Below, piece by piece: positions 11,435 to 61,190 of a DNA stretch of 64,000 nt. Within the stretch, counting starts at the first letter, position 1. Each line of letters opens with the position of its first letter. The stretch is from contig OY970320.1 of assembly GCA_963716745.1 (NCBI GenBank), positions 2,048,001-2,112,000 of the forward strand, read 5' to 3'. Under the pieces are notes generated by a model. The model was not told where the DNA came from. It was given only the letters and a program-made list of their open reading frames with translations, and ran no database searches. Position numbers and translations under genes: made by a program. The DNA is from an uncultured Gemmatimonadaceae bacterium. GTDB taxonomy: Bacteria; Gemmatimonadota; Gemmatimonadetes; Gemmatimonadales; Gemmatimonadaceae.

Positions 11435-11521
11435 ACTGCAGACTGAGACGTTAGACCTAGACGTTAGAATGCGACTACTCGCCGCATTCTAAGTCTAAGT
11501 CTATAGTCTCAGTCTGTAGTT
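11435..11521. repeat. Palindromic element built of AGAC(G)TT/AGACT units, ending GTAGTT
   Basis: ACTGCAGACTGAGAC pairs with GTCTCAGTCTGTAGT; inner TTAGAATGCG/CGCATTCTAA; related to 30479-30514. Confidence 0.75.
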
Positions 11522-12843
11522 CAGCATCCCCCACCGTCGCTCCCGATCGTGTACTGCACGCTCGTCCAACGCGAATCGACACCGGCAGCGAAGCCGTCGA
11601 TACCGAACACGGCGGTCGAGGCGACGAATTGATTCTGCGTCGCCTGCATTCCGCCGGGTGGACCGTAGTTGCGCGTGATCACCGCCGTGCCATCGACGCA
11701 GAGCGTCGCCGACGTCGTGCCGATCTTGCGCAGCCGGTACGTATGGAACGCGGTGCCCGTGAGCGCGAACGTCGCGCCCCGATTGGTCCATTTGCCGCTT
11801 CCGTTGTTGTAGGTCGCGAAGGAGACTCTATCGCTCGCGATCCCCACGAACTCCTGTCTGCGGCCGCTGCCCTGTGGCTCGGCAAAGCCGAATACCGCTT
11901 GGATCGTGCCCGCGGAGGCATTGACCACGCGGAGCCTCGCGTCCATGACCGCGGATCCGGTTCCCAGCGAATCGTGTCGTGAGTAATAGAGGCTGGTATT
12001 CGCGGTGCCCGCCTGCAGCCTCAGTTCGGTGCCCGCCGTGAAGGCCGCGGTGCCGAGCGTCGGATCGCCGGTGGACGCGAACGTTCCCCAGCGCGGTTTG
12101 CCGTTGAGATCGGGCAGAGAATCCTGCGTGCCATCGTAGATCCGGAGCCAGGTCGTCTCATGCGGCGCCGGCCACGATGCGCTCACCATGAGCGTGAAGA
12201 AGAAGGCGTGCACCGTGTCGGTGACGCCGGGATTCCAGTTGCTGGTCTTGAAGAGCCATACGATGCGATTCGTCGTATCCTTGCCCGCGGCACCGCCCGT
12301 GTAGGCTGACGGACGATTCGGATAGAAGAAATACTTCTGCCCCGCCGCGGTGAAACTGCCGGTGCCCGACTGATTGCTCACGCTCACGGCGCAGCCGACG
12401 CACGGACTCGGCCGCGAGACGTTCGGTGCGACGGTGAAGAACGCGAACACCCCCGACGTATCCGGCGCCGCCACCTCCGGATAGTTGGAACCGATCGCGA
12501 ACGCCTGGCGATTGCGAAGTTCCACGTGCGTGAACCATGTGCGGCTGCCCGCGGGGCCGACGCCGACCACATTGTGCAAACTGTCCACGACGCCGAGCAC
12601 GTCGATCGTCACGCCCTGCTGGCCATAGATCGCGGGACTGATCTTCGTGTCCGTCAGGCCCGCAATGCTGCCGGAGAGCGGCACGAACGTCGTCGTTATC
12701 GTGTTGCCGCTGATCATGCCGTTGACGAAGCCGAGTACGGGTGTCGACGGCGTCGTTATTGGAGCGGAAGGCGCCGGCTCGCTGCACGCCGCGGCGAGCA
12801 GGACGAGGGCAGCCGTTGGTATCAGTCTTGTGTGAGAAGTCAT
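11521..12843 (-). CDS. Surface lipoprotein: unnamed N-terminal domain plus beta-rich (LamG-like?) C-terminal domain; last gene of RiPP-like locus 1
   Basis: Lipobox LLAAAC; N-domain aligns by eye with 55338-55632. Confidence 0.7.
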   Translation of the reverse strand: MTSHTRLIPTAALVLLAAACSEPAPSAPITTPSTPVLGFVNGMISGNTITTTFVPLSGSIAGLTDTKISPAIYGQQGVTIDVLGVVDSLHNVVGVGPAGSRTWFTHVELRNRQAFAIGSNYPEVAAPDTSGVFAFFTVAPNVSRPSPCVGCAVSVSNQSGTGSFTAAGQKYFFYPNRPSAYTGGAAGKDTTNRIVWLFKTSNWNPGVTDTVHAFFFTLMVSASWPAPHETTWLRIYDGTQDSLPDLNGKPRWGTFASTGDPTLGTAAFTAGTELRLQAGTANTSLYYSRHDSLGTGSAVMDARLRVVNASAGTIQAVFGFAEPQGSGRRQEFVGIASDRVSFATYNNGSGKWTNRGATFALTGTAFHTYRLRKIGTTSATLCVDGTAVITRNYGPPGGMQATQNQFVASTAVFGIDGFAAGVDSRWTSVQYTIGSDGGGC

Positions 12844-12929
12844 ACGAAGATACCTGTGCGAGAAAGTGTGCTGCTCTTCGGTCAATGTATAACGGCCAAA
12901 TGCGCGCCGCATCAGCGACGTGCATCACA

Positions 12930-13844
12930 CTACGGGAACAGGATCGCCGGCTCGCGTTCCTGCGCGGCGGTCCCAGGGAACAGCACTTGGATCGAGTCCG
13001 GCGTCAACACGAGCGCCTTCATCGAACTGTTCGCCGCACCCATGGCCGCCGCGAAGATGCAGTACGACGCGTTGCAGCTCGCGGGGCCGCTCGCGGTGAG
13101 CGAGTCCGGGATCGCGTTCATGGGGTTCGTGCCGGTCGCGTCGATCCGGCGGAGGATCAGCTCCGGAACGGGCGCGATGTAGTAGATCTTCGTGCCATCC
13201 GCCGACCATGTCGGCGAGAACGCGCCGCCGCCTTCGTTCGTGATGCGCGTGGGCGTCCCGCCGCCGCTCGCCACGACGTACACCTGCGATGTTCCGGTTC
13301 CCACGCCCGTGTACGCGATGGTGTGGCCCATCGGATTCCACGCGGGCGCACTCACGGGGCTGTACACCGGGTCGCCGGTCGCGAGCATCTGCGCAGAATC
13401 CATCGTCCCCTGGTCCAGCGCCGGCGCGCGGATCAGCCACACCCTCGGCACGCCCGTGCGCGTGCTCACATAGGCGATGGAATCGCCGCTCGGGCTCAGC
13501 GCCGGCGTGTAGTCGAATGCGCCGCTATGCACGACGCGGTGCGGGGTCGTGATGTCGAGGTCGGCAATGTAGATCTGCGGGTAGCCGTCGCGCTCGCTCG
13601 TGAACACGATGCGCGATGCCGCACTGTTGGGATCGTAATTGTTCGATCCGGCGGTGAGCACGACCACGGAGTCGTTCCGGAATCGCACGAGACTCGTGAA
13701 GCCACCCGTGTCGGCCACATACACGAACGCCGGCAATGTCCCGGGCGGCGGCCCACCGCCACCATCGGTGCCCGTCGAGTTGCTGCAGGCGAGCGCGCCG
13801 ATCGCGAGGGCGGCCGCAAGAATGCGCACGGCGTCAGCTCGCAT
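12930..13844 (-). CDS. TolB-like (PD40 repeat) beta-propeller lipoprotein
   Basis: Lipobox GALAC; IVFTSERDGYPQIY, PALSPSGDSIAYVSTRTG, PTWSADGTKIYY. Confidence 0.85.
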   Translation of the reverse strand: MRADAVRILAAALAIGALACSNSTGTDGGGGPPPGTLPAFVYVADTGGFTSLVRFRNDSVVVLTAGSNNYDPNSAASRIVFTSERDGYPQIYIADLDITTPHRVVHSGAFDYTPALSPSGDSIAYVSTRTGVPRVWLIRAPALDQGTMDSAQMLATGDPVYSPVSAPAWNPMGHTIAYTGVGTGTSQVYVVASGGGTPTRITNEGGGAFSPTWSADGTKIYYIAPVPELILRRIDATGTNPMNAIPDSLTASGPASCNASYCIFAAAMGAANSSMKALVLTPDSIQVLFPGTAAQEREPAILFP

Positions 13845-14103
13845 CGGCCACCAACAATCCGGCATCGTTGAGCGCCGCGATCAGCGCGCGTGTCTCTTCG
13901 CGCGCCACGGGCTCGGTCACGGTGTACTCCGCCGCGAGTGTCTGCACGATCTCATCCTCCACGCGCCCCTCGAGCAGCAGCGCCCAGATGCGCGTACCGG
14001 TCGCGTTCAGCGAATGGTAACGATTGGTGCGGAGATTCAACAACACCGCACCCTCGGCGAGCGTCGCGGCGAGCGCGTCGGGTGTCGCGCGCCATCGGGT
14101 CAT
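13834..14103 (-). CDS. PqqD-family RiPP recognition element (89 aa)
   Basis: EGAVLLNLRTNRYHSLNATGTRIWALL..LAAEY..LNDAGLL; ATGA overlap with the reconstructed kinase stop. Confidence 0.9.
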   Translation of the reverse strand: MTRWRATPDALAATLAEGAVLLNLRTNRYHSLNATGTRIWALLLEGRVEDEIVQTLAAEYTVTEPVAREETRALIAALNDAGLLVADAS

Positions 14104-14886
14104 GACAGCGCACCCGCGAGCGTGCCGGCGATCGCGTGCAACTGCCGGGCGGTGTGAGCTGAGACGGAACGCCGGGGCGTCCGTTACGAGCGCCCGCAGC
14201 GTCTCGAGGTGCGCCTCCGAGTGGCCGTCCGGCATCATCACCCAGGTGGATTGTCGTACGAGCTGCAGCAGTGCTTCCGCGGCCGCCATGGGCAGCAGCT
14301 CGTCGCGGTCGCCGCGCTCCAGGAAGACGATCGCCGCGACGCGCGCGCGCTGCACGACGGGAAATCGCATCGGTACACGGTCGCGCTCATCGCGGAATCC
14401 CGGAGGCGGCGCGACGCCGGTGAGTTCGGGGAATTCTGGGGCGAGCGCACGGCTTACGGCGAGCGGTTCGCGCCACGCGTGCGCGACGACTCCCGTCGGT
14501 GTGCGCTCGACGATCACGCCATCGTCGCCCATCAGTCTCCAGCCGGCGCGTACGAGCGCGTAGGCGAGCGTGGACTTTCCCGTTCCGTTCCCGCCGGCGA
14601 GGATCCAGGCGCGGCCCTTCGGATCCGCCACCGCCGCGGCGTGCACGTGGAAGCGGCCGAGGGCGCGCAGGCGCACGATCGCGCCCACGCGTGCGAGGAA
14701 CTGGCGCTCGGGGGTGGCGGTGGTGGCGTAGCGATCGCCGCGTTGCAGGCGGCCACGGCGCACGGTGAGCGTGCCGCCGTCGGGCATCAGCTTGAGCACC
14801 GAGCCGGCTGCGTCGGTGAAAGCATCGATCGGACCGGCGGTCCAGGCGAACCCGGGCACGGGCTCCGCCTGTTGCGGCGTCAGCAG
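14100..14886 (-). CDS. HPr-kinase-like P-loop kinase (start uncertain; indel near 14158)
   Basis: HVHAAAV, ILAGGNGTGKST (Walker A), LMGDDGVI; shifted frame ends HTARQLHAIAGTLAGALS-TGA. Confidence 0.8.
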
Positions 14887-15104
14887 CCGAACTTCTGTCC
14901 GCTTACTCCACAGGTGATCTGCAGCGCGAACGCGACGCCGGCGGGGCCGAAGAAATGCTTCGTCAGCACCGTGAGCGATTCGTGGGTCGCGAGCTGCGGA
15001 GTCTCCCAACGGAGACGCGCCGCGCCCGATGTGTCGGGAGCGGGATCGCCGGAGCCGAGCGGAATGTTCGAACCGTCGAGGGGAGAATTGGCCATCGAGC
15101 GCAT
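14880..15104 (-). CDS. Putative RiPP precursor peptide 1 (alternative start 15095)
   Basis: Leader motif WETPQLATHESLTVLTK then HFFGPAGVAFALQITCGVSGQKFGC; directly upstream of kinase and PqqD. Confidence 0.75.
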   Translation of the reverse strand: MRSMANSPLDGSNIPLGSGDPAPDTSGAARLRWETPQLATHESLTVLTKHFFGPAGVAFALQITCGVSGQKFGC

Positions 15105-15346
15105 GCGAGTTAGGGACTAACTCTCTTCATATTCCAATGACTCGCACGGGTTCCGGCGGTCACTTTTTCTATCGCGAGGGCGGAGGTGACCCCTGTCACA
15201 GAGCGTTCCAGGGTGCTCCCATACCGCTTAGAGAAGAATGTACGGCGAGAGGAAGGGAGGCGCAACCGAACAACCGACGTTGGACGTGAGACGTTGGAAC
15301 CCCTCTCGCTTGACCTACAGGGGGCGCGGGGGCAGGATGGACGCCC

Positions 15347-16777
15347 ATGACGCGTAACAGATGGGTCGCGGTGGGGATCGGAGCGCTCGCCGCGATCGGG
15401 GCGGGGTTCGTTTGGTATGCGACGAGCGCGGGAGTGGGGCTGTTAAGCAATGACTCGTTCCTGTATGCGACGCTGGCGAAGGAACTGCGCGGCGGGCGGG
15501 CGCTGTCGAGCATCGCGGTGCCGCCGGGATTCCCCGCGATGCTGGCGATGGGCGCGGATCCGTTCGCGACCGCGAGGATCCTGAACGTCGTTTCCGTCGC
15601 GGCGTTGGTGGCGCTCACCGGCGGCATCGTGTGGTGGAGCACGCGACGCGCGGCGCCGTCGATGTTCGCGGCGGCGCTCGTGGCCGGCGCCAAGCCGCTG
15701 CTCGCGGTGCACGCGATGATGCTGTCCGAGCCGCTGGCGCTCGTGGTGGGTGCGGCGGGGCTCTGGCTCACGCTCGTCGCGCTCGACCGCGACCGCACTT
15801 CGGTCTGGTGCGCGGCGGCGCTCGCGCTCGGGCTCGCGGCGTTCGTGCGATACGCGGCGGTGGCGTATCCGCTCGCGGCCGTGACGCTGGTCGCGCTCGA
15901 GCGGCGCTGGCGCCGGGCCGCGCTGCTCGCGGCGATCTCGGCGCTCCCGCTCGCGATCTGGCTGGCGCGCAACATGCTCGTGGCCGGCGCTCCGACGGAT
16001 CGCATGTTCGCATACCACGCGATGCCGGCGCGCGTCGCGGGCTGGGGACGCGACGCGGTGAGCGTGTGGTTCGACCCGCTCGGGATCGCATTCGGCGGCC
16101 ACCCCGACCTGCGGTGGACCGCAGTGATCGCCGCGGCGCTGCTGTTCGCGTGGGCGATCGCACGCGGTGGCCGCCTCGCGCGACTGGCGGGCCTGTTCGC
16201 GGCGATGTACGTGCTCTTGCTGGTCGTGGTGATCGAATTCTTCGACGCATCAACGATCTTCGATTCGCGAATGCTGGTGCCAGTGTACGTCGCAGCGGTG
16301 CTCGCGGGATCGTGCGCGTTCGCGGCGCTGCTCGTGGCGCCGCGCTGGGCGCCATGGGCGGCGGCCGCGGCCACGCTATTCGTGATCGCGCACGCGTACG
16401 CGGATGTTCGATTCGCGCAGCGAATCCATCCGCAAGGCTGGGGCGCGACGATCGCCGCCTGGCGCGAGTCGCGTCTGGTGGGCGCCGTGAATGCGCTGCC
16501 GCCCGGCACGGAAGTCTGGACGAACGCGCTCTTGCAGCTGCCGTGGGTGAGTGCAGAGCCGGTGCACGCACTCCCGCGCCCCCGCACGCGCATTGGTGGC
16601 GTGCCCTGGGCCGGCTACGATTCCGCGCTCGCGGCCATACCCAGTGGCGCGTACGTCGCACAATTCGGCGATTCTGCGACGTACCAGGGAGCCGCGGTGC
16701 GGGATCTCGTGCGCACGCGCGGGTTGGAAGTTGTTGCCGAAGCGCCGGAGGGCGCGCTCTACAGGGTGAAACGTTAG
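15347..16777 (+). CDS. Polytopic GT-C fold glycosyltransferase-like protein (PMT/ArnT-like)
   Basis: N-terminal TM then SNDSFLY, PPGFPAML, LSEPL; many TM helices; soluble C-terminal tail. Confidence 0.6.
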   Translation: MTRNRWVAVGIGALAAIGAGFVWYATSAGVGLLSNDSFLYATLAKELRGGRALSSIAVPPGFPAMLAMGADPFATARILNVVSVAALVALTGGIVWWSTRRAAPSMFAAALVAGAKPLLAVHAMMLSEPLALVVGAAGLWLTLVALDRDRTSVWCAAALALGLAAFVRYAAVAYPLAAVTLVALERRWRRAALLAAISALPLAIWLARNMLVAGAPTDRMFAYHAMPARVAGWGRDAVSVWFDPLGIAFGGHPDLRWTAVIAAALLFAWAIARGGRLARLAGLFAAMYVLLLVVVIEFFDASTIFDSRMLVPVYVAAVLAGSCAFAALLVAPRWAPWAAAAATLFVIAHAYADVRFAQRIHPQGWGATIAAWRESRLVGAVNALPPGTEVWTNALLQLPWVSAEPVHALPRPRTRIGGVPWAGYDSALAAIPSGAYVAQFGDSATYQGAAVRDLVRTRGLEVVAEAPEGALYRVKR

Positions 16778-16874
16778 ACGTTGGACGTTAGAACTTCCGA
16801 ATGAATTCGAGTGGCTTCACCATGCGCATGATCGTCCGCCTCCTGGCACGCTTCACTGTCGCGGAGGATCCCAC

Positions 16875-18371
16875 ATGCGTCACACACTGATCATCTCTGG
16901 CCTCGCTTCGTGCGTGGCCGCTATTGCCGGTTGCAAGTCCAACGATACGGGCTCGACGGGTCCCACGGGCCCGAGCGGATATGCGGCCAACATCACGAAA
17001 GTGAGCGGTGACGATCAGACGGGCACGTTCCTATCGCCCGTTCCAGTGCCGCTCGTCGTCGAGGTGACCGACTCAGCGGGCAAACCCGTGACCGACGCCA
17101 GCGTCGCGTGGGCGGTCAACCTCCTCGATGCCTCGCAGCTCCTGCAGGTATCGACCACCGATGGCAGCGGCCAGACTCAACTCTCGCCCGTTCTCGGGGG
17201 GCGGCCGGGCGCCTTCTCCGTGGTGGCCGCGATCAACAGCAAGGCCGTCACCTTCACGGGGACCTCGAACGTGGCCTTAGGCGCGGGTCTCAAGAACTTC
17301 ACGACCAATCTCTTCGCCAAGTGCGCCCTCGACACGCAGGGCAACGCGCTCTGCTGGGGCAACGGTCTGTTCGGCCAACTCGGACCCACGACGACCGGCC
17401 CCGTCACCGGGCCGGTGCCGATTCCTGGTGGCCACGCGTTCACGCAGATCAGCGGCAACGGGGGCTTGGACTGCGGACTCACGGCCGGCGGCGCAATGTA
17501 CTGCTGGGGCAACGCCATGTATCCGCAGATCGGAAGCGGAGCGCCGGGCACCGGAACCTTCACGACGCCGGTCGCGGCCGGCAATGGCAAGATCTTCAGT
17601 CAGATCGCGGTCGGCTACGCGGTCGCGTGCGGCATCTCGTCGGGCGTGACGTATTGCTGGGGCTTCGGCCACCAGGGCGCGCTGGGCACGGGAGACACGG
17701 CCACACGCTTCGTGCCCACCGCGGTGCAGGTCCCGTCGGGAGTCGCGTTCACCTCGCTTGCGGCAGCCAGCGGCGGATTCACCTGCGGGCTCACATCCGC
17801 AGGCGCGGCGTATTGCTGGGGTGAGAACGACGTTGGAGAACTTGGCACGGGCAGCAGCTCGCCGAGTATCTCGCTCGTGCCCCTCCAAGTGACCGGCGGT
17901 CACACATTCAGCACGCTCGTCGTGAGTCTCTCGGCGGCATGCGGATTGACCTCGGGCGGCGCCGTGTACTGCTGGGGACATGGCGCCAATGGCAACGGCA
18001 CGACGGCCGACGAATATTCTCCCACGGCAATTTCGCAGAGCGGCCTGACCTTCACGCAGCTCTCCGCGACCGGCGGTCTGGGTGCCGTCTGCGCCTTGAC
18101 GTCCGCGGGCGCGGCGTACTGCTGGGGCAGCAACATATACGGCGATTTGGGAAGCGGGTCGTTCGCGACCAGCGGTACGACGCCTGTTCCGGTGACCGGC
18201 GGCCACGTCTTCAGCGCGGTCGTGCCCGGTCCGTTGAGCACCTGCGGATATTCGACGGGCCAGGTGATGTATTGCTGGGGCGCGAACCAATCGAGAGAGC
18301 TCGGACTCGATCCCGGGGCCGACACGATGTACGCGGTGCCGCAGGCGGTGCCGGGGTTGGGCAAGCCGTAG
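16875..18371 (+). CDS. Lipoprotein with Ig-like domain and RCC1/BLIP-II-like repeats
   Basis: GGAGG RBS; AIAGC lipobox; VSGDDQTG..PLVVEVTDSAG; repeated CGL--G--YCWG-N--G-LG. Confidence 0.9.
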   Translation: MRHTLIISGLASCVAAIAGCKSNDTGSTGPTGPSGYAANITKVSGDDQTGTFLSPVPVPLVVEVTDSAGKPVTDASVAWAVNLLDASQLLQVSTTDGSGQTQLSPVLGGRPGAFSVVAAINSKAVTFTGTSNVALGAGLKNFTTNLFAKCALDTQGNALCWGNGLFGQLGPTTTGPVTGPVPIPGGHAFTQISGNGGLDCGLTAGGAMYCWGNAMYPQIGSGAPGTGTFTTPVAAGNGKIFSQIAVGYAVACGISSGVTYCWGFGHQGALGTGDTATRFVPTAVQVPSGVAFTSLAAASGGFTCGLTSAGAAYCWGENDVGELGTGSSSPSISLVPLQVTGGHTFSTLVVSLSAACGLTSGGAVYCWGHGANGNGTTADEYSPTAISQSGLTFTQLSATGGLGAVCALTSAGAAYCWGSNIYGDLGSGSFATSGTTPVPVTGGHVFSAVVPGPLSTCGYSTGQVMYCWGANQSRELGLDPGADTMYAVPQAVPGLGKP

Positions 18372-18475
18372 GCGCTCGGCGCGCGCCGCTCTCTTCTCCG
18401 GCTAGAGCGCCAGGTCTATATTCAGCGATCGGACGTCCATTGTCAGTCGTCAAACGTTGGCCGTTCGAAAACTGC

Positions 18476-18547
18476 GGCGCGGTAGCCAAGTGGTAAGGCA
18501 GCGGTCTGCAAAACCGCTATTCGCCGGTTCGATTCCGGCCCGCGCCT
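18476..18547 (+). tRNA. tRNA-Cys (GCA)
   Basis: Acceptor stem GGCGCGG/CCGCGCC, D-arm GCCAAGTGGTAAGGC, anticodon arm GCGGT-CTGCAAA-ACCGC, T-arm GCCGG-TTCGATT-CCGGC, discriminator U; CCA not encoded. Confidence 0.97.
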
Positions 18548-18555
18548 CTCTTCAG

Positions 18556-18598
18556 AACGACGCGCGCCCGGCAGACTGCCCGGGCGCGCGTTGTCGTT
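18556..18598. terminator. Hairpin between tRNA-Cys and the convergent gene
   Basis: ACGCGCGCCCGG..CCGGGCGCGCGT stem. Confidence 0.6.
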
Positions 18599-18612
18599 CA
18601 GGTCCTGCGCGG

Positions 18613-20220
18613 CTACGGAGAAGTGAAGGCCACCAGCCCGGAATAGCTCACCCCATAGAGCAGGCCGCCCTTCGACGGGTCGTTCACGATCACCGGGTTC
18701 CACACCGTATTCGGATACGCGAGCACCAAGTGCGAGAGCTGGCGGCCGGTGATGAGATCGAGCACATGGATCCCATCGGAGTTCGATGTGGCGATCAGCG
18801 TGGCGCTCCCGAGCGCGGCGGCGAGCGTGGTGGTGGGCCCGCCGATCGAACCGATGTACGTGCTCAGCCCGTTGATCGTACCGGAGCGCCAGAGGAGCGC
18901 ACCCGTCGCCGCGCTGTGCGACTCGACGCCCGTGGAGGTCGCGATGATCACCGCGCGATTCGCGATGACCGGTGCCTGCTGCCCCGGGCTGGAAACGGTC
19001 CATGACCACACGACATGCAGGTCCGACTGCGCGCGCGCGACGAGTGTGTTGTTGTTCTCGATGAGGTACACGTTCGCGGCATCGGCGCTGATCTTGCTCG
19101 TCGGCTTCGTGCCGACGAACGCGAGCCTCGTGCCCACGGCCTTCGAGAGCGCGTAGACGCCGGGGAGCGGCGGATTGGTCACGGTGGCCGCGGCCCAGTA
19201 GTCGCCGGCGACGAACAGCGTGGTGCCGCTGAGCGCGATGCCGGCGATGTCATCGTATCCGTCGCCGCGCGCGGTGCCATAGCTGTTCGCGGTCCACGTT
19301 TTCGCCCCGGCGGTGGTCATGCGGGCTACGAAGGGGCCGGGTCCGTCCACGTGCCAGCGGTGGTCCACGTACAGCCCGCTCGTATCGGCGAGCGTCTCTC
19401 CCCAGCGGTCCACGCCGCTGAACCAGAGCCGCGAGCCCGAGCTGGTGTCCAGGAAGCCGATCCCGTCATCCTGGAACACGAAGCGGGTGCCCCACACCGA
19501 GCCCCACTGGCCGATGTTGGTGTCGTAGCCGCCGTCGAAGGTCCACGCGCGATGGCCGGCGGTGGTGACGCGGTCCACGTCGGTCGCGCCGGTGTAGCCG
19601 CTGCCGAGCACCGACTGCGCGCTCCACTGGAGGAAGATCGCGTCGGCGGTGGGCAGCGCGTTGAGCACGTATTGGAACGGGCGCGTGCTGGACGGCGCCG
19701 CCGGCGTGTAGCTCCACGCTTTCGTGAGCGGACCTTTGATGCTGGCCTGCGACGCGCCAGCGCGGGTGCCATCGTGCCCGTAGGTGACCCAATCGTCGCG
19801 CACGCCCGGCGCGGCGGCGGTCGCGTTGAAGGTGAGCTTCGTCGACAAGTCGGTCATCGTCGCGAGCACCGAGCTCGTACCGGCCAGGCCGCCGAACGTG
19901 AGCGTCGCTTGCGCTCTCCCATTACGGTCGGTGACCGACGTGGGCGCGTCGAGCGCGCCCTGTCCGGCGACGGTCCAGGTGATGGTGAGGCCCTCGATGG
20001 GCACCGTGTCGGCATCCGTGACTCTCACGACGAACGGGCGCGGGAGCGCCGTGTTGATCACCCCGAACTGCGTGTCGCCGCTGACGATCGTGAACGACGC
20101 CGGCGGGCCGTGTTTGGGCTGAGTGCTTTCATTGCACGCCAACGCGAAGAGCGAAAGGCCAGCGAGCACCGTCAGCACCGCTGCGGGCTTGCGCGAGGTT
20201 CTCGGGATCATCGGGACCAT
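18613..20220 (-). CDS. Lipoprotein with Ig-like domain and PQQ-like beta-propeller
   Basis: LFALAC lipobox; VSGDTQFG..FVVRVTDA; DWVTYGHDGTRAG; G-LLW repeats. Confidence 0.7.
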   Translation of the reverse strand: MVPMIPRTSRKPAAVLTVLAGLSLFALACNESTQPKHGPPASFTIVSGDTQFGVINTALPRPFVVRVTDADTVPIEGLTITWTVAGQGALDAPTSVTDRNGRAQATLTFGGLAGTSSVLATMTDLSTKLTFNATAAAPGVRDDWVTYGHDGTRAGASQASIKGPLTKAWSYTPAAPSSTRPFQYVLNALPTADAIFLQWSAQSVLGSGYTGATDVDRVTTAGHRAWTFDGGYDTNIGQWGSVWGTRFVFQDDGIGFLDTSSGSRLWFSGVDRWGETLADTSGLYVDHRWHVDGPGPFVARMTTAGAKTWTANSYGTARGDGYDDIAGIALSGTTLFVAGDYWAAATVTNPPLPGVYALSKAVGTRLAFVGTKPTSKISADAANVYLIENNNTLVARAQSDLHVVWSWTVSSPGQQAPVIANRAVIIATSTGVESHSAATGALLWRSGTINGLSTYIGSIGGPTTTLAAALGSATLIATSNSDGIHVLDLITGRQLSHLVLAYPNTVWNPVIVNDPSKGGLLYGVSYSGLVAFTSP

Positions 20221-23615: not shown

Positions 23616-23616
23616 G

Positions 23617-52755: not shown

Positions 52756-52794
52756 ACATCCAGTGCAGTCACGATGGCCGAGGCACGATGAACG

Positions 52795-53489
52795 ATGCAC
52801 GCTGACGCCGAGACCCACCTCAAGGAGAGCGATCCGGTACTGCGACGGATCATCGAGCAGGTGGGCCCGTGCACGCTCGAGCCGCACCGGGAATCGACGT
52901 ACTTCCAGTATCTGCTGCGCAGCATCGTCTTCCAGCAGCTCGCGGGCGCGGCGGCGCGCACGATCCACGATCGCGTGATCGCGATCTATGACGGCCGGGC
53001 GCCTGAACCCGAGGACGTGCTCAAGACGCCGCGTGCGAAAGCTGCGCGCCGCTGGGCTCTCGACGCAGAAGGCGAGCTACATTGTGGACCTCGCGCGCCG
53101 CGCCGCGAGCGGCGAGCTGCCGCTGCACACGATGGATTCGCTGACGGATGACGAGGCGATGGCGGCGCTGGTGCAGGTGAAGGGGATCGGGCCGTGGACG
53201 GCGCAAATGTTCCTGATGTTCCGGCTCGGCCGGCCCGACATCCTGCCCGATCTCGATTACGGCGTGAAGCTCGCGATGCGGGTCGCGTACCGCATGCGCA
53301 AGATGCCGAACGCGCGACGCATGCACGCGATCGGTGCCGCCTGGGCACCGCACCGCACCGTGGCCACCTGGTATCTCTGGCGCAGTCTGGATCTGCCCGG
53401 CACGCGCCCGAAGCGGAAGACGGCGAAGAAGCGGCCGAAGGCGAAGAGCGGTCCGCTCGGCGCTCGGCTCCAAGAGGCGGCGAAAGTAG
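52795..53489 (+). CDS. alkA: DNA-3-methyladenine glycosylase II (indel near 53040; end approximate)
   Basis: SIVFQQL, VKGIGPWTAQMFLMF-LGRPD, W-P-R--A--YLW. Confidence 0.85.
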
Positions 53490-54657
53490 TGTCCGTCCCC
53501 GAGTCCCGAGTCCCGAGTCCCGCATACTTCGTCATCACCGCCCCCGGTTTAGAGGCGATCACCGCCGCCGAGATGACCGCACTGGGTCTGGAGCCCGGGG
53601 CCATCGAGCCCGGCGGCATCAGCTTCGACGGACCGGCGGGCGCGCTCTACCGCGCGAACCTCCATTCTGCGCACCGCGACGCGCGTGATCGCGCGCGTCG
53701 GTGAGTTCGAGGCGCGCCACTTCGCCGATCTCGAGCGCCATGCCAAGGCGCAGCCGTGGTCACGGTGGCTGAGCGCCGCACGCCCCGTGCGGCTGCGCGT
53801 CACGTGCAAGAAGTCGAAGCTCTACCACAGCGGCGCCGTCGCGGAGCGCATCACGACCGCGATCGCGCATGCGCTGGGCCGCGCGCCCGAGACGGCGGGC
53901 GCGAGCGCCGGCGATGATGACGACAGCGGCGATGCGCAGCTCGTGATCGTGCGGCTCCTGCACGATCATTGCACGGTGAGCATGGACAGTTCGGGCGCAC
54001 TGCTGCATCGGCGCGGGTACCGGCTCGCCACGGCGAAGGCGCCGATGCGCGAGACGCTGGCCGCGGCGCTGTTGGCGGCGAGCGGGTGGCCAGGCGACGC
54101 GCCGTTGGTTGATCCGATGTGCGGCTCAGGGACGATCGCGATCGAGGCGGCCATGCTCGCCCGGCGGATGGCGCCGGGCGCCCGCCGTGATTTCGCGTTC
54201 ATGCATTGGCCGGCGTTCGACGCGGCGCTGTGGAAGCGCATGCTCGACAAGGCGCGCGACCGCGAACTCCCGCGCGCGTCCGCTCCCATTCTCGCGTCCG
54301 ATCGCGATGCCGGAGCCATCGCGGCGGCAGAGGCCAACGCCGAGCGTGCGGGCGTTGCCAGCGACGTGCAGATCACGCGCACGGCGCTTTCGGGGATCGT
54401 GCCGCCGGCCTCGGCGCGAGGGTGGCTGATCACCAATCCGCCCTATGGCGTGCGCGTGGGCGACCGCAAGGCGCTGCGCGACCTGTACGCGCAACTCGGG
54501 AATGTCGCGCGGCGATCGTGCGCCGGTTGGACGCATCGCCCTGCTCTCGGCCAGCGTGGAGCTCGAGCGTCAGTTGCAGCTGCCGATGACCGTCGCCGTG
54601 AAGACGCGGAACGGCGGCGTACCAGTGCGGATCGTGACAGGGCAGATACCGGCCTGA
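53489..54657 (+). CDS. THUMP-domain RNA methyltransferase (RlmL N-terminal/YpsC-like), indels
   Basis: APGLE, DSSG-LLHRRGYR, APMRETLAA, DPMCGSGTI-IE, TNPPYG-R. Confidence 0.88.
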
Positions 54658-54690
54658 TCCCTTCCCACAACAGCCGGTCGATTTGTCCTA

Positions 54691-54719
54691 TAGACGTGCG
54701 CGACCGGTCGTTGTATGCT
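54691..54719 (+). promoter_or_regulatory. Candidate sigma70 promoter of RiPP-like locus 2 with a palindrome in the spacer
   Basis: TAGACG-17 nt-TATGCT; CGACCGGTCG at 54701-54710. Confidence 0.45.
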
Positions 54720-54765
54720 CCCTATCCCAACCGGTCAAAAGAACCCGTCCTGCCGGTCAAAAAGC

Positions 54766-54948
54766 ATGCCCTTCGTAGAAGGCACTCCTCCGAGCGAGCA
54801 GTCTCCCGCCGCATCACCGGCGTCGCCGAAGCGCGCATGGACTCCGCCGCGCTGCGAGGAATTGCCGCCGCTCACTGACCTCACCATGCAGCAGGGTTCC
54901 GGCATTCACGGCGGTGGGGGCGGAGGCGGCACGGTCTTTCCGTTCTAG
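54766..54948 (+). CDS. Putative RiPP precursor peptide 2 (60 aa)
   Basis: WTPPRCEELPPLTDLTM then QQGSGIHGGGGGGGTVFPF; first ORF of the rSAM-PqqD-kinase operon. Confidence 0.75.
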   Translation: MPFVEGTPPSEQSPAASPASPKRAWTPPRCEELPPLTDLTMQQGSGIHGGGGGGGTVFPF

Positions 54949-54978
54949 CGGGCTTCGTTCACGATCACGGCAGGCACT

Positions 54979-57840
54979 ATGACGCACGCGATCCGCCCGG
55001 CACGTCCTGCCCTGAGATTCCTGGTGCCGCTCGCCGGCGTCGCGGCGCTCTTGTACGGTTGCCAGAGATTCGTTGCCCACCGCAGCGAGCAAGCCGCCGG
55101 TGTATCTGGCGCAGGCGGTGCAGTGCACGGTGAGCGTGGCGCAGCAGAGCATGAGCTGCAGTTCGGGCGAGGCGGCGATCGCTTCGTCGCCGGCGCCGGG
55201 CGCTCGAGGCGGCGCGACGCGAGCATGGCGCGCAGCCAGGGGCGTCCGGTCAGCGAGCGCCGCGCTCGTCGGCCAGTCCGCATAAGTTCGTCACGGTCAC
55301 GTCGCAGAATTTCTTTCACGATGTGGCGGGCGACCGGGTCCTCGCCGACGTGAAGGTGCAGAACCTCACCACCGTCGCGATGGGCTCGAAGGACGGCAGC
55401 ACGTACGATGGCACCGGCGTGAACGTGTTCTTCGATCCGCCGCCCACGGCGCCGGTGACGATCGATAATCCCACCGGCACCAACGGCACGTTCCTCGTCT
55501 CGGGCACGACGTACTTCCAGTATCCGCAGCTCGTGCCCGCCAACGGAACCACCGCGCTTCAGTCGTGGGTATTCGGACTCCACGGCCAGGCGTCGTTCGA
55601 TTTCTTCGTGTATCGTGAGCGCGGCGATGCCGACGGATCCGGACACGGTCGTCATCCCGCCGCACGCATTCCCGGGCATCAGTTCCGGATTCGATCAGAT
55701 CTGCGCGATCCGCGCCGGCAGTCAGGCCTATTGCTGGGGAAACGATTCGCTCGGCCAGTTGGGCGACGGGCGCAGTTCGGACCAGTCCGGTGCCGGTCGC
55801 TGCGCTCGGCGGCCACATTTACAGCTCACTCTCCGCGGGTCCGACGCACGGCTGCGGCATTGAGCAGAGCACCCTCGCAGGATTCTGCTGGGGCTACGAC
55901 TCGCTCGGCGCGCTGGGCGATGGCGGCGCGACGACGCAGAGCGCGCCCACCGCCGTGGCCGGGCAGCTCAGTGGCTCTGCGATCGGCGCCGGCGCGAATC
56001 ACAGCTGCGCGATCGAGTCGGGAACGAACAAGGCATACTGCTGGGGCGACAACGCGCATGGTCAGGTGGGCAAGGGATCGTTGGGCGGGAACGTGACGTC
56101 GCCGACCGTCGTTGTCGGCGGGCACCTGTTCGTCACGGTCGTCTCGGGGCACGATCATTCGTGCGCGCTCACCGCCGCCGGCGCCGCATGGTGCTGGGGC
56201 GCGAACGCCAACATGCAGCTTGGCAACAACGGATTCGCCGATGCGTCGACACCGGTGGCCGTCGGCGGCGGCCATACATGGAAGCAGCTCACCGCGGGCG
56301 GAAACCATGCATGCGGCATTGACAACAGCGACGTCGCATGGTGTTGGGGTTCGGATGCGAGCGGCGAGCTCGGCGATGGGAACTTCGCCGACGAGGGACT
56401 CCCGGTCGCGGTCGACCCGACGGACCTCGGCACGGCGAAGATGATCAGCGCCGGCTCGGACTTCACGTGCGCCGTGGACAAGACGGCGAACGCGAATGGG
56501 TGGTGCTGGGGCGACGGCACTAGCGGGCAACTTGGCGACAACAGCCTTTTCGCGGTACCCAATCCGCAGCTCGTGGACGGCGGTCTCAAGTGGAACTCGA
56601 TCTCCGGCGGTGAGCGGCATACGTGCGGCATTGATAACACGTCGCATGGCTATTGCTGGGGCGCGGGCGACGCTGGTCAGATCGGCGACGGAGTGCCCGG
56701 ATCGACGCAAGCGCCGGGTACGCCCGTGAGCGGCGATACGTACACTGCGCTCGCGGCGGGCGGCGACTTCGCGTGTGGCATGAGCGTCGCGAAGCCGGGA
56801 ACCGGCTGGTGCTGGGGCAGCGCGCAGAAGAGCGCGCTTGGCAACGGGTTCCTCATGACGCAGAGCGCGCCGCTTGGCGTGCTGGGCTTCCATCAATTCA
56901 CTCAGCTCGCGACCGGTCAGAATCACAGCTGCGGGATCGATGTCACGGGCGCCGCATGGTGCTGGGGAGAGAATGACGTGCGACGAACTCGGCACCGGCG
57001 ACGAGACATCGCACAGCATCCCGGCGAAGGTCAGCGGCGGGCATCCTCTATTCGCAGATCAGCGCGATGTTCGTGAGACACCTGTGCGCGGGCCGACCGG
57101 AGCGGGCGACCAACCGACATACTGCTGGGGCAGCAACGGTTTCGGCGAGATCGGCGACGGCACGACGACGAACGCTCCATCGCCGACCGCGCCGGCTGGT
57201 CCGGTAACGACGTTCGCTGCGATCTCGGCCGGGCTGCAGCATACCTGCGCCGTCCAGACCGCCGGTGCCGTCTACTGCTGGGGCGACAATTCGAGCGGCC
57301 AGCTTGGCGACGGTACCAATACTCCGCAACTCCAACCGCAATCTCGTCCCGGGCTTCAGCGGCATCCGCGATCGGCGCCGGATTCTTGTTCACATGCGCG
57401 ACCGAGAGCGGCGGCAGGCCACCATCTCTGGTGCTGGGGCAGCAACAGCAACGGACAACTCGGGATCAACAGCTTCGGCGGTACCAGGACCTCGCCGACG
57501 GTGAGTCGGAGCGCGCGTTCATTCTCGCAGGTCACACTGGGCGCATTCCACGCGTGCGCGTTGGAGCAAGGCACCGGCGAATGCCTATTGCTGGGGATCC
57601 AACAACAAGGGACAGTTGGGCAGTCCGGAAGCTTCAATCAGCAAGACCGTACCCACGCTCGTTGCCGGTGCGGTCACGAGCTTCGTGAGGATCTCGGCGG
57701 GTCGGCAGGATCCCGACCGGATCGCCCATCACCTGCGCCTCGACCGCCGCCGGCGCCTCCTATTGCTGGGGTTCGACGTACGGGAATTCGCCCACGCTGG
57801 TCACGCCGCCATGAGCGCCGCCACGATCCTCGCGCGCTAG
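54979..57840 (+). CDS. Large lipoprotein: unnamed N-domain plus many RCC1/BLIP-II-like repeats (several indels)
   Basis: LLYGC lipobox; repeated H-CA/CG---G-A-CWG-N--GQLGDG in ORFs 55615, 55790, 56874 and later. Confidence 0.85.
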
Positions 57841-57846
57841 CTGCAT

Positions 57847-58844
57847 ATGCTCCTTGGCTTCGCGGTCACGCGTCACTGTAATCTTCGTTGTCCCCATTGT
57901 ATTCGGGACGACGTCGTGACGGTCGGCGAACTCAGCGCCGCGCTCATCGGCCGCATCACCGGCGAGGCGAAGGCGCTCTTCGGCGAAGTGAGAGTCAGTC
58001 TCACCGGCGGCGAACCCCTCATCCATCGCGACTTCGCCGGCATCGTCGACGGCACTGCGCGAACGCGCGGTGCCCTGGACGATCGTGACGAACGGCTGGC
58101 ACATTGCGCGCGCGCTTCCGGTGCTCGAGATCGCACCCGCCCGCCGCGGTGCGGCTCTCGCTCTCCGGCGCGAACGAAGCTGTGCATGACGCCGAGCGTG
58201 GCGACGGCTCGTTCCGCCGCGTGCTCTTGGCCGCCGCGATCCTCACGAGCCGCCGGATCCCCTTCTCGCTCGGGATCCTCATCGATCGCCGCGACCGCAG
58301 CGATCTGCGCGAGGCCGCGGATCTCGCGGAGTCGCTCGGCGCGATGAGCCTCCAGGTGCTGTTCGCGCAACCGGTGCCCGCGAGCGCCGCACGCGGCTCC
58401 GATCTCGCACCGCGCGACTGGCAGCAGGTGGTGCGCGAGGTGCGCGCATTGAGCACGGAGTCGCACCGGTGCACTGCCGTCTCGCTCGATTTCGGTGCGC
58501 CGCCCTTTCCGGGTGAAGCGCCGCTCACCTGCGACACGTTCACGCACCGCCGGATCTATGTGAATCACAACGGCGAGCTCTGTCTGTGCTGCCAGCTCTC
58601 GGAGTACGGCGAGATCCCGACCGACGTCGTCGCCGATCTGAACGCCGTGCCGCTCGCGGTCGCGTATGGCGCGTACACGCGTCAACTCGCGGAATTGCGC
58701 CGCGCCGCCGAGCCCGAAGCAGGCGATGCGCTCGCCAAGTTCCCGTGCCTTCGGTGCGCGCGGACGTCGGGCAAACTCGATTGGCTCGCGCGGTTCCCGG
58801 AGAGCCCGTGGCACGATGCCCCCGGCGTGCCCGCCCATGCGTAA
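57847..58844 (+). CDS. Radical SAM enzyme with SPASM/twitch-like C-terminus (indels near 58074-58140)
   Basis: CNLRCPHC (CxxxCxxC), LTGGEP, IVTNG, SLSGA..HD-ERG-GSF; C-x13-G-x4-C and distal CLRC. Confidence 0.92.
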
Positions 58845-59959
58845 ACTCGCGTTCGCTCTGTTGCTCCCGTTCCTGCTCGCCTCGTCGTGCGACATTCCGG
58901 GGGTCACCGACACGTCGCCGATGATCGATGTCACCGGGCGCACTGAGCGCGGGACCATAGTGGTGCTGCGCCTGCTCGTCGCCGGCTCGCCCGTCGCCGG
59001 CGCTGCATTCTCGGTCCCTCCGGACGGACACGCGTTCGTCCTGAACGAAGACAGCCTCTTCTTGATACAGCCGGGACCCCTCACGATCGATGCGCGCGGG
59101 CTTCTGGGTGGGGACAGCGTGCACGCCACACGCACGATCACGATCTCCGCGGCACCCACGATCGTGTTCGACGGTCTGGTCGCCGGGAATCGCGACATCT
59201 ACTCGGTAGGGCCTCAATGGCAGTGCGCTCGTGCGCCTCACCACCGATCCGGGCGATGATCGCATGCCCACCGCGCTCGGCGCCACGGTGTACTTCATCA
59301 GTTCGCGCAGCGGTACCGCCGAGCTGTTCACCGTTCCACTCGCAGGCGGCGCGGACGCGCCATTGGCCGCGAGCACGCTCGCGGAGAGTCAGCCGGCCGT
59401 CGCGCCGAGTGGTTCGCATCTCGCGTACGTGGGCACGGATTCGTTCCCGCACATCTATGTCGCCGGCCTCAATGGCGGTGCCGTTACTCGATTCGCGGCG
59501 GCCGACGCAGGATTCTCCGGAGCGCTGGAAGCCAGTCCCACCTGGTCGCCCGCAGGCGATCACATCGCCTACACGACCACGCGTGATGGCGCCGCCGGGA
59601 TCTATACCGGCGCGCTCAACGGCGCCGCGGGAAGCGCGACGCAGCTCGTGAGCGGCGCGCACGGGTACGCGAATGTCGACCCGGCGTGGAATCCGAACGG
59701 ACTCAGCGTCGCCTTCGCATCGAATCGTGACGGTCCAACGGATCTCTACTTGATCACCATCGCGTCGGGTACGGTGACGCGCCTGACGACGCGCGGAAAC
59801 GTGGGACAGCCCGCATGGCTCGCCGACGGCCGGCTGATGTTCACCGAATTCATCTCCGGCGCGAACGGGCTGCGCTGGCTCGACCCCGCGGACACGAGCG
59901 TGATCCACGTCATTCCCACCGGCCCGGGATCGGCCGAGCACGCGTCGGCGGTACCATGA
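58837..59959 (+). CDS. TolB-like (PD40) lipoprotein (indel near 59210)
   Basis: LLASSC lipobox; PTWSPAGDHIAYTTTRDG, PAWNPNG-SVAFASNRDG-TDLY. Confidence 0.85.
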
Positions 59960-60243
59960 GCGCGAGCCCGATACGGCCGCTCCGGCCCGCCGAGAGTGTG
60001 CTCGTCGCGCATCTCGACGGTGAATCGGTGCTGCTCGATCTCGAGAGCAAGCACTACTATCGCTTGAACGAGAGCGGCTCGGCGATCTGGCGCGCGGTTG
60101 AGTCCGGCGCGGAGCCGCACGCGATCGCCGACGCGCTGGTGTCCGCGTTCAATGTCTCGGAACCCGAGGCGCGCGCGGCCGTCGATGGGCTGCTCGCGGA
60201 TCTGAGCGAGAAAGGATTGCTCGTGCCCAAGGCCGCCGTATGA
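59956..60243 (+). CDS. PqqD-family RiPP recognition element (95 aa)
   Basis: LDGESVLLDLESKHYYRLNESGSAIW..L---F-V..LL-DL-EKGLL; ATGA overlaps on both sides. Confidence 0.92.
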   Translation: MSASPIRPLRPAESVLVAHLDGESVLLDLESKHYYRLNESGSAIWRAVESGAEPHAIADALVSAFNVSEPEARAAVDGLLADLSEKGLLVPKAAV

Positions 60244-61190
60244 GCCGCCTGCTCTCGGCGACACCGATCGCACTGGAGGCGGACCGCTTCACGGCATCGC
60301 TGATGCGCGAGATGCTCCCCGCTGTGCGCGAAACCGGTGGTCCAGCGATCGCGGGCCGAGTGCGCGCGCTGCGTTCGGCGGCGGACGCTCCCTCCTCGCC
60401 TGAGCGGGCGCCGACGCTGCGCGTGAGCGGCGTCGCGTTCTGGATCGATGCGCCGCCATCGAGCCGCGTCGCATTTCGAAATGTCAGCGGCTCGGTGCAT
60501 GGATCGATCGACCGCAACTCATCGCGCGCGGAGCTGCGCGTATCGCCGCGCATTGCGGATGACGAGCGCATGGATCCGGGAATCGCGTTCGGAGTGGTGG
60601 TGTCACTCCTGGCGGCGCGCTTGGGCCACGCGCTCGTGCACGCCGCCGGCGTGATCGCACCAAGCGGACGCGCCTGGTTGCTGGTTGGCGACTCCCACTC
60701 AGGAAAGTCGACGACCACTGCGACGCTCATCGCTGGCGGATGGGACTATCTCGGCGATGACTCGGTGGTCCTCTCGCTGGCGCGCGGCGACGCGCCCGGT
60801 GCGCGCGTGCATGTCGAAGGCTGGCGCGTGCCGATCCGCCTCGACCACGGCTCGACGGCCGGTGCGGCGCGCGCCGATCGCGTCGAGGTCGACCCGCACG
60901 CGCTCGGCGGCGGACGGTGGCGCGCATCGGCGCCGCTGGGCGGATTGCTCTTCCCGCGCGTGGATCGCGCGGCGCGCACCACGCTCGCGCCGATCGCGCG
61001 CGCCGATGCCTACGCCGCGCTCGTGCGTCAGAGTCCGTGGCTGCTCGCCGATCCTGTGAGTGCGCCGCGCGTGAGCGACCTGCTCTCGGCGGCGAGCGGC
61101 CATTCCGCCGCGCGCCTCACGCTGGGCGCCGATTGCTATGCGGACGCCGCGCGGATGACCGAGGTGCTCGGCGCGCTGACGGGCCTCTAG
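60240..61190 (+). CDS. HPr-kinase-like P-loop kinase
   Basis: LVHAAGV, LLVGDSHSGKST, YLGDDSVV, LVRQSPW; paralog of 14100-14886 (LVRQSTW). Confidence 0.85.
   Translation: MSRLLSATPIALEADRFTASLMREMLPAVRETGGPAIAGRVRALRSAADAPSSPERAPTLRVSGVAFWIDAPPSSRVAFRNVSGSVHGSIDRNSSRAELRVSPRIADDERMDPGIAFGVVVSLLAARLGHALVHAAGVIAPSGRAWLLVGDSHSGKSTTTATLIAGGWDYLGDDSVVLSLARGDAPGARVHVEGWRVPIRLDHGSTAGAARADRVEVDPHALGGGRWRASAPLGGLLFPRVDRAARTTLAPIARADAYAALVRQSPWLLADPVSAPRVSDLLSAASGHSAARLTLGADCYADAARMTEVLGALTGL

Follow-up and report, generated by a model that had tools for sequence, protein, structure and literature searches.

Two conserved Gemmatimonadota operons predicted to join a lasso-type-leader peptide, a leader-binding protein and a peptide kinase to envelope lipoproteins

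The closest described systems are those of phosphorylated lasso peptides and of linear polyphosphorylated peptides (LPP). Paeninodin, with its kinase PadeK, and pseudomycoidin, with a kinase and a nucleotidyltransferase, are treated in PMC8498205, and the Bradymonas bsf cluster, composed of BsfK/B1/B2/N, in PMC10368454; here and below K stands for the kinase, B1 for the PqqD protein or RiPP recognition element (RRE; RiPP, a peptide made on ribosomes and modified after its translation), B2 for the leader peptidase and N for the PF14907 nucleotidyltransferase. According to these sources, the RRE of phosphorylated lasso systems speeds both phosphorylation and leader cleavage, and PMC10368454 gives the spacing of the lasso leader as Y/W(-17), P(-14), L(-12) and T(-2). 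In Paenibacillus alginolyticus and further members of the Bacillota, the LPP cluster is composed of lppA-K-B-S-D-N (Popov et al., Nat Commun 2026, PMC13381572); according to that report, its leader motif is YxxPxVLxHQxIxFETxxS, the phosphorylated residue is Ser3 and the leader is cut after T-1 by a signal-peptidase-I-like enzyme. Here we describe two loci located in one window, i.e., a stretch of 64,000 nt from an uncultured soil Gemmatimonadaceae bacterium (GCA_963716745.1, contig OY970320.1:2,048,001-2,112,000). They are two conserved operons, each predicted from sequence to encode a lasso-type-leader peptide together with a leader-binding protein, a peptide kinase, a PD40 lipoprotein and a second lipoprotein, and both probably are small ribosomal peptide operons that descended from phosphorylated-lasso machinery and do without the ring-forming cyclase.

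Components were called by open reading frame (ORF) listing and by Pfam and NCBIfam scans of the window proteins, and all ten parts of the five-part module that an earlier note on this DNA had assigned to the two loci were found in place. Locus 1 lies on the minus strand and consists of precursor 1 (14880-15104, 74 codons from the first ATG), the HprK-like kinase 1 (14104-14859, with a probable GTG start at 14859, within ORF 13834-15009), PqqD/RRE 1 (13834-14103; PF05402 62.8 bits against a cut-off of 23.4), the PD40 beta-propeller lipoprotein 1, termed 'TolB-like' earlier (12930-13865; PF07676 76.3 bits; lipobox ...ALAC), and the second lipoprotein, Lip 1, of 440 residues (11521-12843 within ORF 11521-12912). 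Locus 2, on the plus strand, comprises precursor 2 (54766-54948, 60 codons), the RCC1 lipoprotein Lip 2 (54979-57881; RCC1/WD40_RLD Pfam matches; several frames in this assembly), a radical SAM (rSAM) enzyme (57847-58844), PD40 beta-propeller lipoprotein 2 (58837-59959; PF07676 68.4 bits; lipobox ...LASSC), PqqD/RRE 2 (59956-60243; PF05402 64.3 bits) and the HprK-like kinase 2 (60240-61190). The genes of locus 2 are as closely packed as had been noticed, with start and stop codons overlapping at the rSAM/PD40, PD40/PqqD and PqqD/kinase junctions. In the hidden Markov model (HMM) searches proposed earlier, PF05402, HprK-like kinase and PD40 models match in both loci, the kinase models below their cut-offs in the case of kinase 1.

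Both precursors carry the leader motif (RR)P-WxxPx[L/V]x9T, which is the lasso/LPP recognition motif. The leader of precursor 1 reads ...RLR-WETPQLATHESLTVLT-K and is followed by the core HFFGPAGVAFALQITCGVSGQKFGC, and that of precursor 2 reads ...KRA-WTPPRCEELPPLTDLT-M, with the core QQGSGIHGGGGGGGTVFPF; the W stands at -17 or -16, and P, L/V and T follow it at +3, +5 and +15, a spacing kept in the two window precursors and in 48 related ones. When all six frames of the genome were searched with the leader pattern plus a short tail, only the two window ORFs matched. Since this leader is unique to these two ORFs genome-wide and the gene sets recur in relatives, the arrangement observed is above chance. 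The short ORFs, on whose conservation the earlier note had staked its proposal, are conserved in congeners (G002, G003 and G004 were compared; the genus was sampled with six genomes): precursor 1 is 100% identical in G002, 98.6% in G004 and 77% over 47 residues in G003, and precursor 2 is identical at 60/60 residues in G004 and 46/46 in G002.

The module is also conserved beyond the genus, a point that had been set beforehand as a test: both loci are syntenic in congeners and recur across Gemmatimonadota. A survey centred on the rSAM gene, in which an alignment of four rSAM proteins was used for searching, returned 76 loci. Sixty of these, at 38-100% identity, comprise 58 titled as Gemmatimonadota lineages, one as 'uncultured bacterium' and one as 'Bacterium HR33', and the only full-length match of this rSAM alignment search outside Gemmatimonadota is one Myxococcota contig. 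Genome G038 is represented by single rows in the alignments, counts and tree described below, and no claim is based on it alone. In 48 of the 60 related loci, the rSAM gene is accompanied within 8 kb by a short ORF bearing this leader. The type-2 precursors, which resemble that of locus 2 (n=29), follow the pattern RRP-WxAPRVxDLPRLTELT-LQ(T/S)G..I.GGGGTGGGGSTVF, and the type-1 precursors (n=19) the pattern RRP-WVAPTLTxHASLTALT-Q.QYPQ...PCSQGFCP or ...PGSTGFFP. Type-1 clusters in other genera have the order precursor-Lip-rSAM-K-B1-B2-N::PD40. In one type-1 subgroup (L071, L074, L075, L077, L080 and L088) the order is rSAM-kinase-precursor-PD40, the core is long and ends in PGSTGFFP, and no PqqD was detected within 9 kb.

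Cyclase-less K-PqqD-B2-N cassettes of a simpler kind, with precursors of their own (FxxPxLxEEASLxxxT-LVS...GGGG..), are common in sister families of the same order and often adjoin ABC-2/Wzt-type transporter genes. Their precursors are unannotated in the examples L028-L035 and L039 (families f2 and f3), with up to three in tandem in L030. A Ser is found 18 residues after the W in 8/9 precursors of these simple cassettes, and an S/T at the same distance in 27 of the 29 type-2 precursors.

The proteins predicted to act on the leader are of lasso type. NCBIfam lasso_PqqD models match both PqqD proteins best, yet below cut-off (for PqqD 1, lasso_PqqD_Strm with 58.2 bits against 70), and a profile of 14 family PqqD proteins (A3) had four matches only among PDB sequences, all of them PqqD-family RREs: the lasso B1 proteins TbiB1 (9.6e-24) and TfuB1, together with 9x90_B, whose title reads lasso peptide biosynthesis PqqD family chaperone, and 9x8z_B, whose title says just PqqD family protein. 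By these matches both PqqD proteins are lasso-type B1. A third PqqD gene of the genome (G000:C1:147367-147620, minus strand; G000 is the genome of the window) was judged unrelated: it adjoins a PQQ-type dehydrogenase and a cytochrome c gene and has no kinase or precursor of the studied family beside it.

Kinase 1 is matched at the P-loop by TIGR04352 and PF07475, below their cut-offs, and kinase 2 by TIGR04352, also at the P-loop; searched against PDB sequences, kinase 2 gave no match at E <=0.01. The motif H..GxxGxGKS..(15)..DD is shared by the two window kinases and by 54 of the 60 kinase ORF pieces from related loci, the other six being out-of-frame or cut pieces and one divergent sequence. 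The H..GxxGxGKS..DD residues were shown to be essential in BsfK, according to PMC10368454. Both kinases look active in that they keep the catalytic motif of lasso peptide kinases. With conserved, real precursors, lasso-type RREs and kinases whose catalytic motif is intact, the RiPP-type nature that the earlier note proposed for the loci appears well founded.

The relation of the two loci to each other was addressed with 53 kinase domains in a quick maximum-likelihood tree. It places kinase 1 within a type-1 clade of 28 rows (Shimodaira-Hasegawa-like approximate likelihood ratio test, SH-aLRT, 100) and kinase 2 within a type-2 clade of 15 rows (SH-aLRT 98); a node with a support of 85 unites these clades, separate from the kinases of the simple cassettes (100). 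From the placement of the kinases in two supported clades it follows that the loci are old paralogues: they are paralogous, as had been suggested, but through ancient divergence and not through a recent duplication. Locus 1, judged by its kinase, belongs to a mostly rSAM-associated clade and has lost the rSAM gene, which is also lost in G052.

Many genes are split in this assembly, several of them in the window. Kinase 1 and PqqD 1 form a single frame here as a result of a private 1-nt insertion near 14159, which also puts the C-terminal ~20 codons of the kinase out of frame; in G002, G003 and G004 the kinase stop and the PqqD start overlap as ATGA. Single-base indels that congeners lack interrupt the RCC1, rSAM and PD40 genes of locus 2. 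Compared with two congeners, the rSAM gene of the window carries private 1-nt insertions at 58049 and 58131; its G004 orthologue is unbroken (331 aa), and that of G002 has four other private insertions. Short-read soil contigs that are 95-99% alike lack single bases at 55614, 55778, 55979, 57339, 57363, 57410, 58129/58131 and 59208, and these positions are the frame breaks of the window, including the one near 59208 in PD40 lipoprotein 2. Errors of this assembly, private to it and one base long, are the most likely cause of the frame breaks of locus 2 and of the apparent kinase-PqqD fusion of locus 1. Because the breaks are private and absent from congeners and, at the positions listed, from short-read contigs, we treat the genes as intact, and we infer that they are so in the living organism. 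Upstream of precursor 2, an RlmL/UPF0020-type methyltransferase gene (53685-54878, plus strand) runs in the wrong frame at its end, which is probably another single-base assembly error; the G004 copy stops earlier.

That locus 2 is a decaying pseudogene cluster with genuine frameshifts is, in our opinion, very improbable. The RCC1, rSAM and PD40 genes are indeed out of frame in the window, and G002 and G004 have indels of their own; yet each indel is private to its assembly and one base long, the extra bases are absent from the short-read soil contigs at no fewer than eight break points, and unrelated genes (N, a methyltransferase and an AsnB) are broken as well. Furthermore, all three genomes are few-contig assemblies with a marker completeness of only 63-90%, and precursor 2 is 100% conserved.

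The absence of a lasso cyclase from both loci, pointed out earlier from the sequence, extends to the entire genome, where the search for one that had been called for (PF00733, NF033535) was also negative. The genome has eight Asn_synthase (PF00733) matches, of which the strong ones are AsnB-type: TIGR01536 gives 418 bits against a cut-off of 267, and the lasso cyclase model NF033535 at most 212 against 525. An exopolysaccharide (EPS)-type locus with GT4 and GT2 glycosyltransferases, located 12-32 kb upstream of the window (G000:C1:2014000-2040000), contains three glutamine-hydrolysing AsnB-like amidotransferases, one of them frameshift-split. No Asn_synthase domain was found among 133 Pfam-scanned flanking ORFs of related loci (79 + 54), and neither window core contains Asp or Glu, the ring-closing residue of a lasso. 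It could be argued that these are ordinary phosphorylated lasso clusters whose cyclase is encoded elsewhere or was missed, given that a lasso-type leader, B1, B2 and kinase are all present and that the marker completeness of the genome is estimated at 89.8%. Against this stand the single 3.29-Mb contig that makes up the genome, the AsnB type of the strong Asn_synthase matches, which belong to the EPS locus and score under the lasso cyclase cut-off, and the lack of a cyclase domain in the scanned flanks. The cores themselves speak the same way, as neither begins with G/A/S/C after T-x and an acidic residue occurs at core positions 7-9 in only 8/29 type-2 and 6/19 type-1 relatives. We hold an ordinary lasso cluster to be exceedingly improbable.

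The situation with the leader peptidase is different from that with the cyclase. Neither locus contains a B2 gene, as had been observed, but the genome search revealed one orphan B2 outside the window (G000:C1:2965605-2966093; NF033537 70.5 bits against a cut-off of 33), 0.85 Mb away. Exactly one copy is present in each of the six genus genomes, always unlinked to the loci, and in type-1 clusters of other genera B2 lies between B1 and N; several type-2 clusters elsewhere include both B2 and N. The idea of a B2-free pathway, implied earlier, has to be given up: B2 is unlinked in this genus and in-cluster in other genera. The nucleotidyltransferase N (4580-5651, minus strand) has a single genomic copy, which is located 6 kb from locus 1 and is frameshift-split in the window; it is intact in G002, G003 and G004, with ORFs of 387-408 aa, and the gene order Lip1-pilin-DUF3592-STK-trypsin-like-N (STK, Ser/Thr kinase) is identical in G002 and G004. 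In the window, the gap between locus 1 and N holds, all on the minus strand, genes for a trypsin-like peptidase of 682 aa (5734-7782), a Ser/Thr kinase (7916-9610) and a DUF3592 protein (9708-10769). The prepilin-type (N_methyl) gene occurs twice in the genome, at 10806-11306 (plus strand) of the window and at G000:C1:150539-151319, with near-identical protein stretches; the window copy directly adjoins Lip 1, and flanking sequence is duplicated as well.

Pfam and NCBIfam scans of the locus genes and their neighbours revealed no ABC transporter domain, in agreement with the earlier statement that neither locus has an ABC exporter, and no extra peptidase is consistently conserved in the flanks of related loci. 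An export-signal role of the leader would account for both the missing exporter and the periplasmic partners: the leader would double as a twin-arginine-like RRxW signal, and the modified precursor would be exported uncut and trimmed in the periplasm. A dibasic pair directly before the W in 39/48 precursors (RR in 33/48) fits this idea, and a cut after the T would give A.T at -3/-1 in 20/48; LPP leaders are likewise cut after T-1 by a signal-peptidase-I-like enzyme, as stated in PMC13381572. We nevertheless find such a double role quite unlikely. RR is followed by a short, polar stretch that includes H, E and D, and the -3 residue of type-2 precursors is E or D, poor for signal peptidase I, in 22/48. 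The cytoplasmic B2 is conserved throughout the six genus genomes and in-cluster elsewhere, and no archaeal-type signal peptidase I exceeds its cut-off in the genome (best TIGR02228 match 19.3 bits against 51.85). The window proteins scanned gave no peptidase S26 match.

The link to envelope lipoproteins, which the earlier note had put forward, is genuine and conserved. Neighbours were counted, with HMMs built in this analysis, in the 25 rSAM-centred loci that have at least 5 kb on each side: 19 of them have PD40, 13 the Lip domain and 20 one or both, and the corresponding numbers are 17 for a kinase, 14 for B1, 8 for N and 6 for B2. Fusions in other genomes extend the association, as N and PD40 form a single ORF in seven loci, with an internal lipoprotein-signal-like segment between them, and Lip and PD40 do so in the Longimicrobium loci L043 and L049. 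Examples of N::PD40 frames are L025:5127-7010 (minus strand), L073, L082-L086 and L095; the internal segment consists of a charged stretch, a hydrophobic stretch and then A-S/G-C, and could be a membrane anchor or the site at which a lipoprotein is released from the larger protein. Orthologues of PD40 lipoprotein 1 follow the PqqD gene in L021-L024. PD40 lipoprotein 1 has no peptidase domain, and neither PD40 protein has a TolB N-terminal domain; with the TolB equivalog model TIGR02800, whose cut-off is 343 bits, they score 90.6 and 93, the propeller part alone matching.

In the Lip alignment (A2, 13 rows) the lipobox Cys is invariant. The Lip HMM matches the RCC1 lipoprotein of locus 2 in its N-terminal part (55155-56093, 2e-08) and also the G002 orthologue of this protein (2e-19), from which it follows that Lip 1 and Lip 2 have an N-terminal domain in common and carry different heads; one relative has a leishmanolysin-like head. 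In an AlphaFold model of Lip 1, built from the 13-row alignment, a family-specific N-terminal beta domain is accompanied by a concanavalin-A-like sandwich at the C terminus. The mean predicted local distance difference test score (pLDDT) of this model is 64.9, and means over 10-residue blocks range from ~57 to 94 over residues 250-440. Foldseek matched it to lectin domains, calreticulin, ERGIC-53 and GH16 glucanases, and the C-terminal half of Lip 1 is, as modelled, a lectin/GH16-like sandwich. The Lip N-terminal domain gave a top score of 0.77 and no named family against the ESM Atlas. Two further lipoproteins, both with Big_1 domains, are encoded upstream of locus 1 (16875-18371, plus strand, and 18613-20220, minus strand); one of the pair, which is syntenic in G002 and G004, contains an RCC1 propeller, and the other a PQQ_2/BamB-like propeller.

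The rSAM enzyme of locus 2 matches PF04055 above the cut-off. Eight Cys residues are invariant in all four aligned rows: 11, 15 and 18, which form the CX3CX2C motif, and 228, 247, 248, 300 and 303 in the Cys-rich C-terminal domain, which could serve an auxiliary cluster. The enzyme has no N-terminal RRE, as CX3CX2C is already reached at residues 11-18. The best curated matches are to models of the MftC, ScmF, GeoRSP and PqqE types, and every score stays far short of its cut-off (MftC 85.7 against 265; ScmF 79 against 400). Since these curated relatives all use a discrete PqqD, the peptide, instead of being secreted in free form, might be matured into a small ligand or prosthetic group of the periplasmic propeller and lectin lipoproteins, comparable to PQQ or mycofactocin, for which an rSAM enzyme with a discrete PqqD acts on C-terminal residues of a short peptide. 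The conserved T-V-F or S-T-C-F ends of the type-2 cores are in line with this, mycofactocin MftA ending in G-V-Y, as are the steadier presence of PD40 than of the kinase beside rSAM (19 versus 17 of the 25 loci) and the fusion of N and Lip to PD40 in other genomes. A cofactor role is unlikely all the same, because the rSAM matches are far under the equivalog cut-offs, the scanned flanks of related loci contain no peptidase, oxidase or other downstream cofactor enzyme, PD40 and RCC1 propellers are not among known cofactor enzymes and locus 1 retains PD40 and Lip without rSAM.

If the two loci are cyclase-free peptide operons of phosphorylated-lasso descent, B1 would bind the leader and hand the peptide to the kinase, which would phosphorylate a core Ser/Thr. 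The candidate in relatives is the S/T located three residues beyond the leader Thr, as it is in LPP and Bsf, a guess made because this residue is conserved in relatives and equals LPP Ser3. For the window peptides, the candidate sites are the S/T of a conserved S/T-x(0-3)-F, which is found near the C terminus of 20/29 type-2 and 19/19 type-1 precursors. The single PF14907 nucleotidyltransferase may lengthen the phosphate, and in locus 2 the rSAM enzyme would alter the Gly-rich core or its conserved C-terminal T-V-F end. The orphan B2, together with B1, would cut the leader off after T-x, and the product of 19 to 25 residues would reach the periplasm, where the co-transcribed PD40 and Lip lipoproteins, lectin-like in locus 1 and with an RCC1 propeller in locus 2, may bind or process it.

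A number of observations weigh against this scheme. The window cores have no S/T at the LPP/Bsf position (precursor 1 has K-H-F and precursor 2 M-Q-Q there, so that core position 3, the Ser3 of LPP, is F and Q, respectively). Of the 13 type-2 loci flanked by 5 kb or more on each side, only five have a kinase within 7 kb, and for this reason phosphorylation may not be the defining step of the rSAM branch. Cys is present in only 14/29 type-2 and 11/19 type-1 cores, and, as 15/29 type-2 cores lack it, Cys is not in general the rSAM target. B2 and N are absent from the loci, and we infer their use in trans from single-copy conservation only; an exporter was found neither in the loci nor consistently in the flanks of relatives. 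Finally, genes are broken in this assembly, and the break at 58049 lies outside the short-read contig coverage.

A bolder proposal, tentative and with a rather small chance of being correct, is that the rSAM branch makes a new kind of RiPP whose product serves the cell's own envelope instead of being secreted. The rSAM enzyme would then cross-link the Gly-rich peptide, to which a phosphate or phospho-sugar tag would be added where K and N are present, and the peptide would be passed over the inner membrane to a dedicated pair of periplasmic receptors, the PD40 propeller and the Lip lipoprotein, whose head is of the lectin, RCC1 or protease kind. A physical trace of such a trans-envelope assembly line would be seen in the N::PD40 and Lip::PD40 fusions. 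If this is true, the peptide would be a ligand, adaptor or prosthetic group of surface lipoproteins.

It was not until 2026 that ring-free peptides made by a lasso-derived kinase, RRE and nucleotidyltransferase were first characterised, and the family described here, which is restricted to one little-studied soil phylum (~60 species-level genomes), joins this toolkit to an rSAM enzyme. The suggestion that the loci represent an undescribed class holds in part: cyclase-less K+RRE+N peptides were published with LPP (PMC13381572), and the combination with rSAM and lipoproteins is not yet in print. Among the papers listed in the literature searches, supplements aside, none mentions HPr kinase or HprK together with radical SAM, and none ties such cassettes to PD40/lectin lipoproteins or to Gemmatimonadota. 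For Gemmatimonadota, RiPP and radical SAM together, only a general Antarctic survey of biosynthetic gene clusters was retrieved, and PMC12710340 makes no mention of kinase, HPr, PD40 or Gemmatimonad. The link to a periplasmic propeller and lectin-like lipoproteins is the first concrete hint that such peptides act at the cell envelope. The lipoproteins are defined candidate binding partners, and the short precursors and small number of enzymes make the chemistry tractable.

Compared with known systems, the PD40 proteins resemble TolB of Tol-Pal in their beta-propeller repeats and periplasmic location and differ from it in having a lipoprotein signal, in lacking the TolB N-terminal domain and a tol-pal operon, and in scores far from those of the TolB equivalog. 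As in MftC/MftB, PqqE/PqqD, SynChlorMet and GeoRSP, an rSAM enzyme without its own RRE adjoins a discrete PqqD, and, as in SynChlorMet (ScmC, which is HprK-like, ScmD and ScmE/F; uncharacterised, from NCBIfam), an HprK-like protein is encoded beside it; none of the papers listed in the literature search names SynChlorMet or GeoRSP cassettes. Unlike in these systems, scores here are 67-86 bits against cut-offs of 265-400, only five C-terminal Cys are conserved and the RRE is of lasso type. With phosphorylated lasso clusters the loci share the K/B1/B2/N gene set, the kinase catalytic motif and the leader spacing, whereas here there is no macrolactam cyclase genome-wide, no ring-closing acidic residue in the cores and no ABC exporter in the loci, and B2 and N are unlinked in this genus. 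The likeness to LPP lies in the absence of a cyclase, an HprK-like kinase, a discrete lasso-derived RRE, a PF14907-type NTP transferase (here 6 kb from locus 1), a leader of the form [Y/W]xxPx[V/L] with Thr 15 residues after the aromatic one, and the S/T that relatives of locus 2 have at the position of the phosphorylated Ser3. In contrast to LPP, which belongs to Bacillota, the loci described here belong to Gemmatimonadota, have W in place of Y in the leader motif, lack a SipW-like signal peptidase (LppS), with a lasso B2 in the genome instead, and contain no MsbA-like pump, and add an rSAM enzyme, a PD40 propeller lipoprotein and a Lip lipoprotein. K, B1, B2 and N are covered by the literature on LPP and phosphorylated lasso peptides; the rSAM enzyme and the PD40 and lectin-like lipoproteins are what is new.

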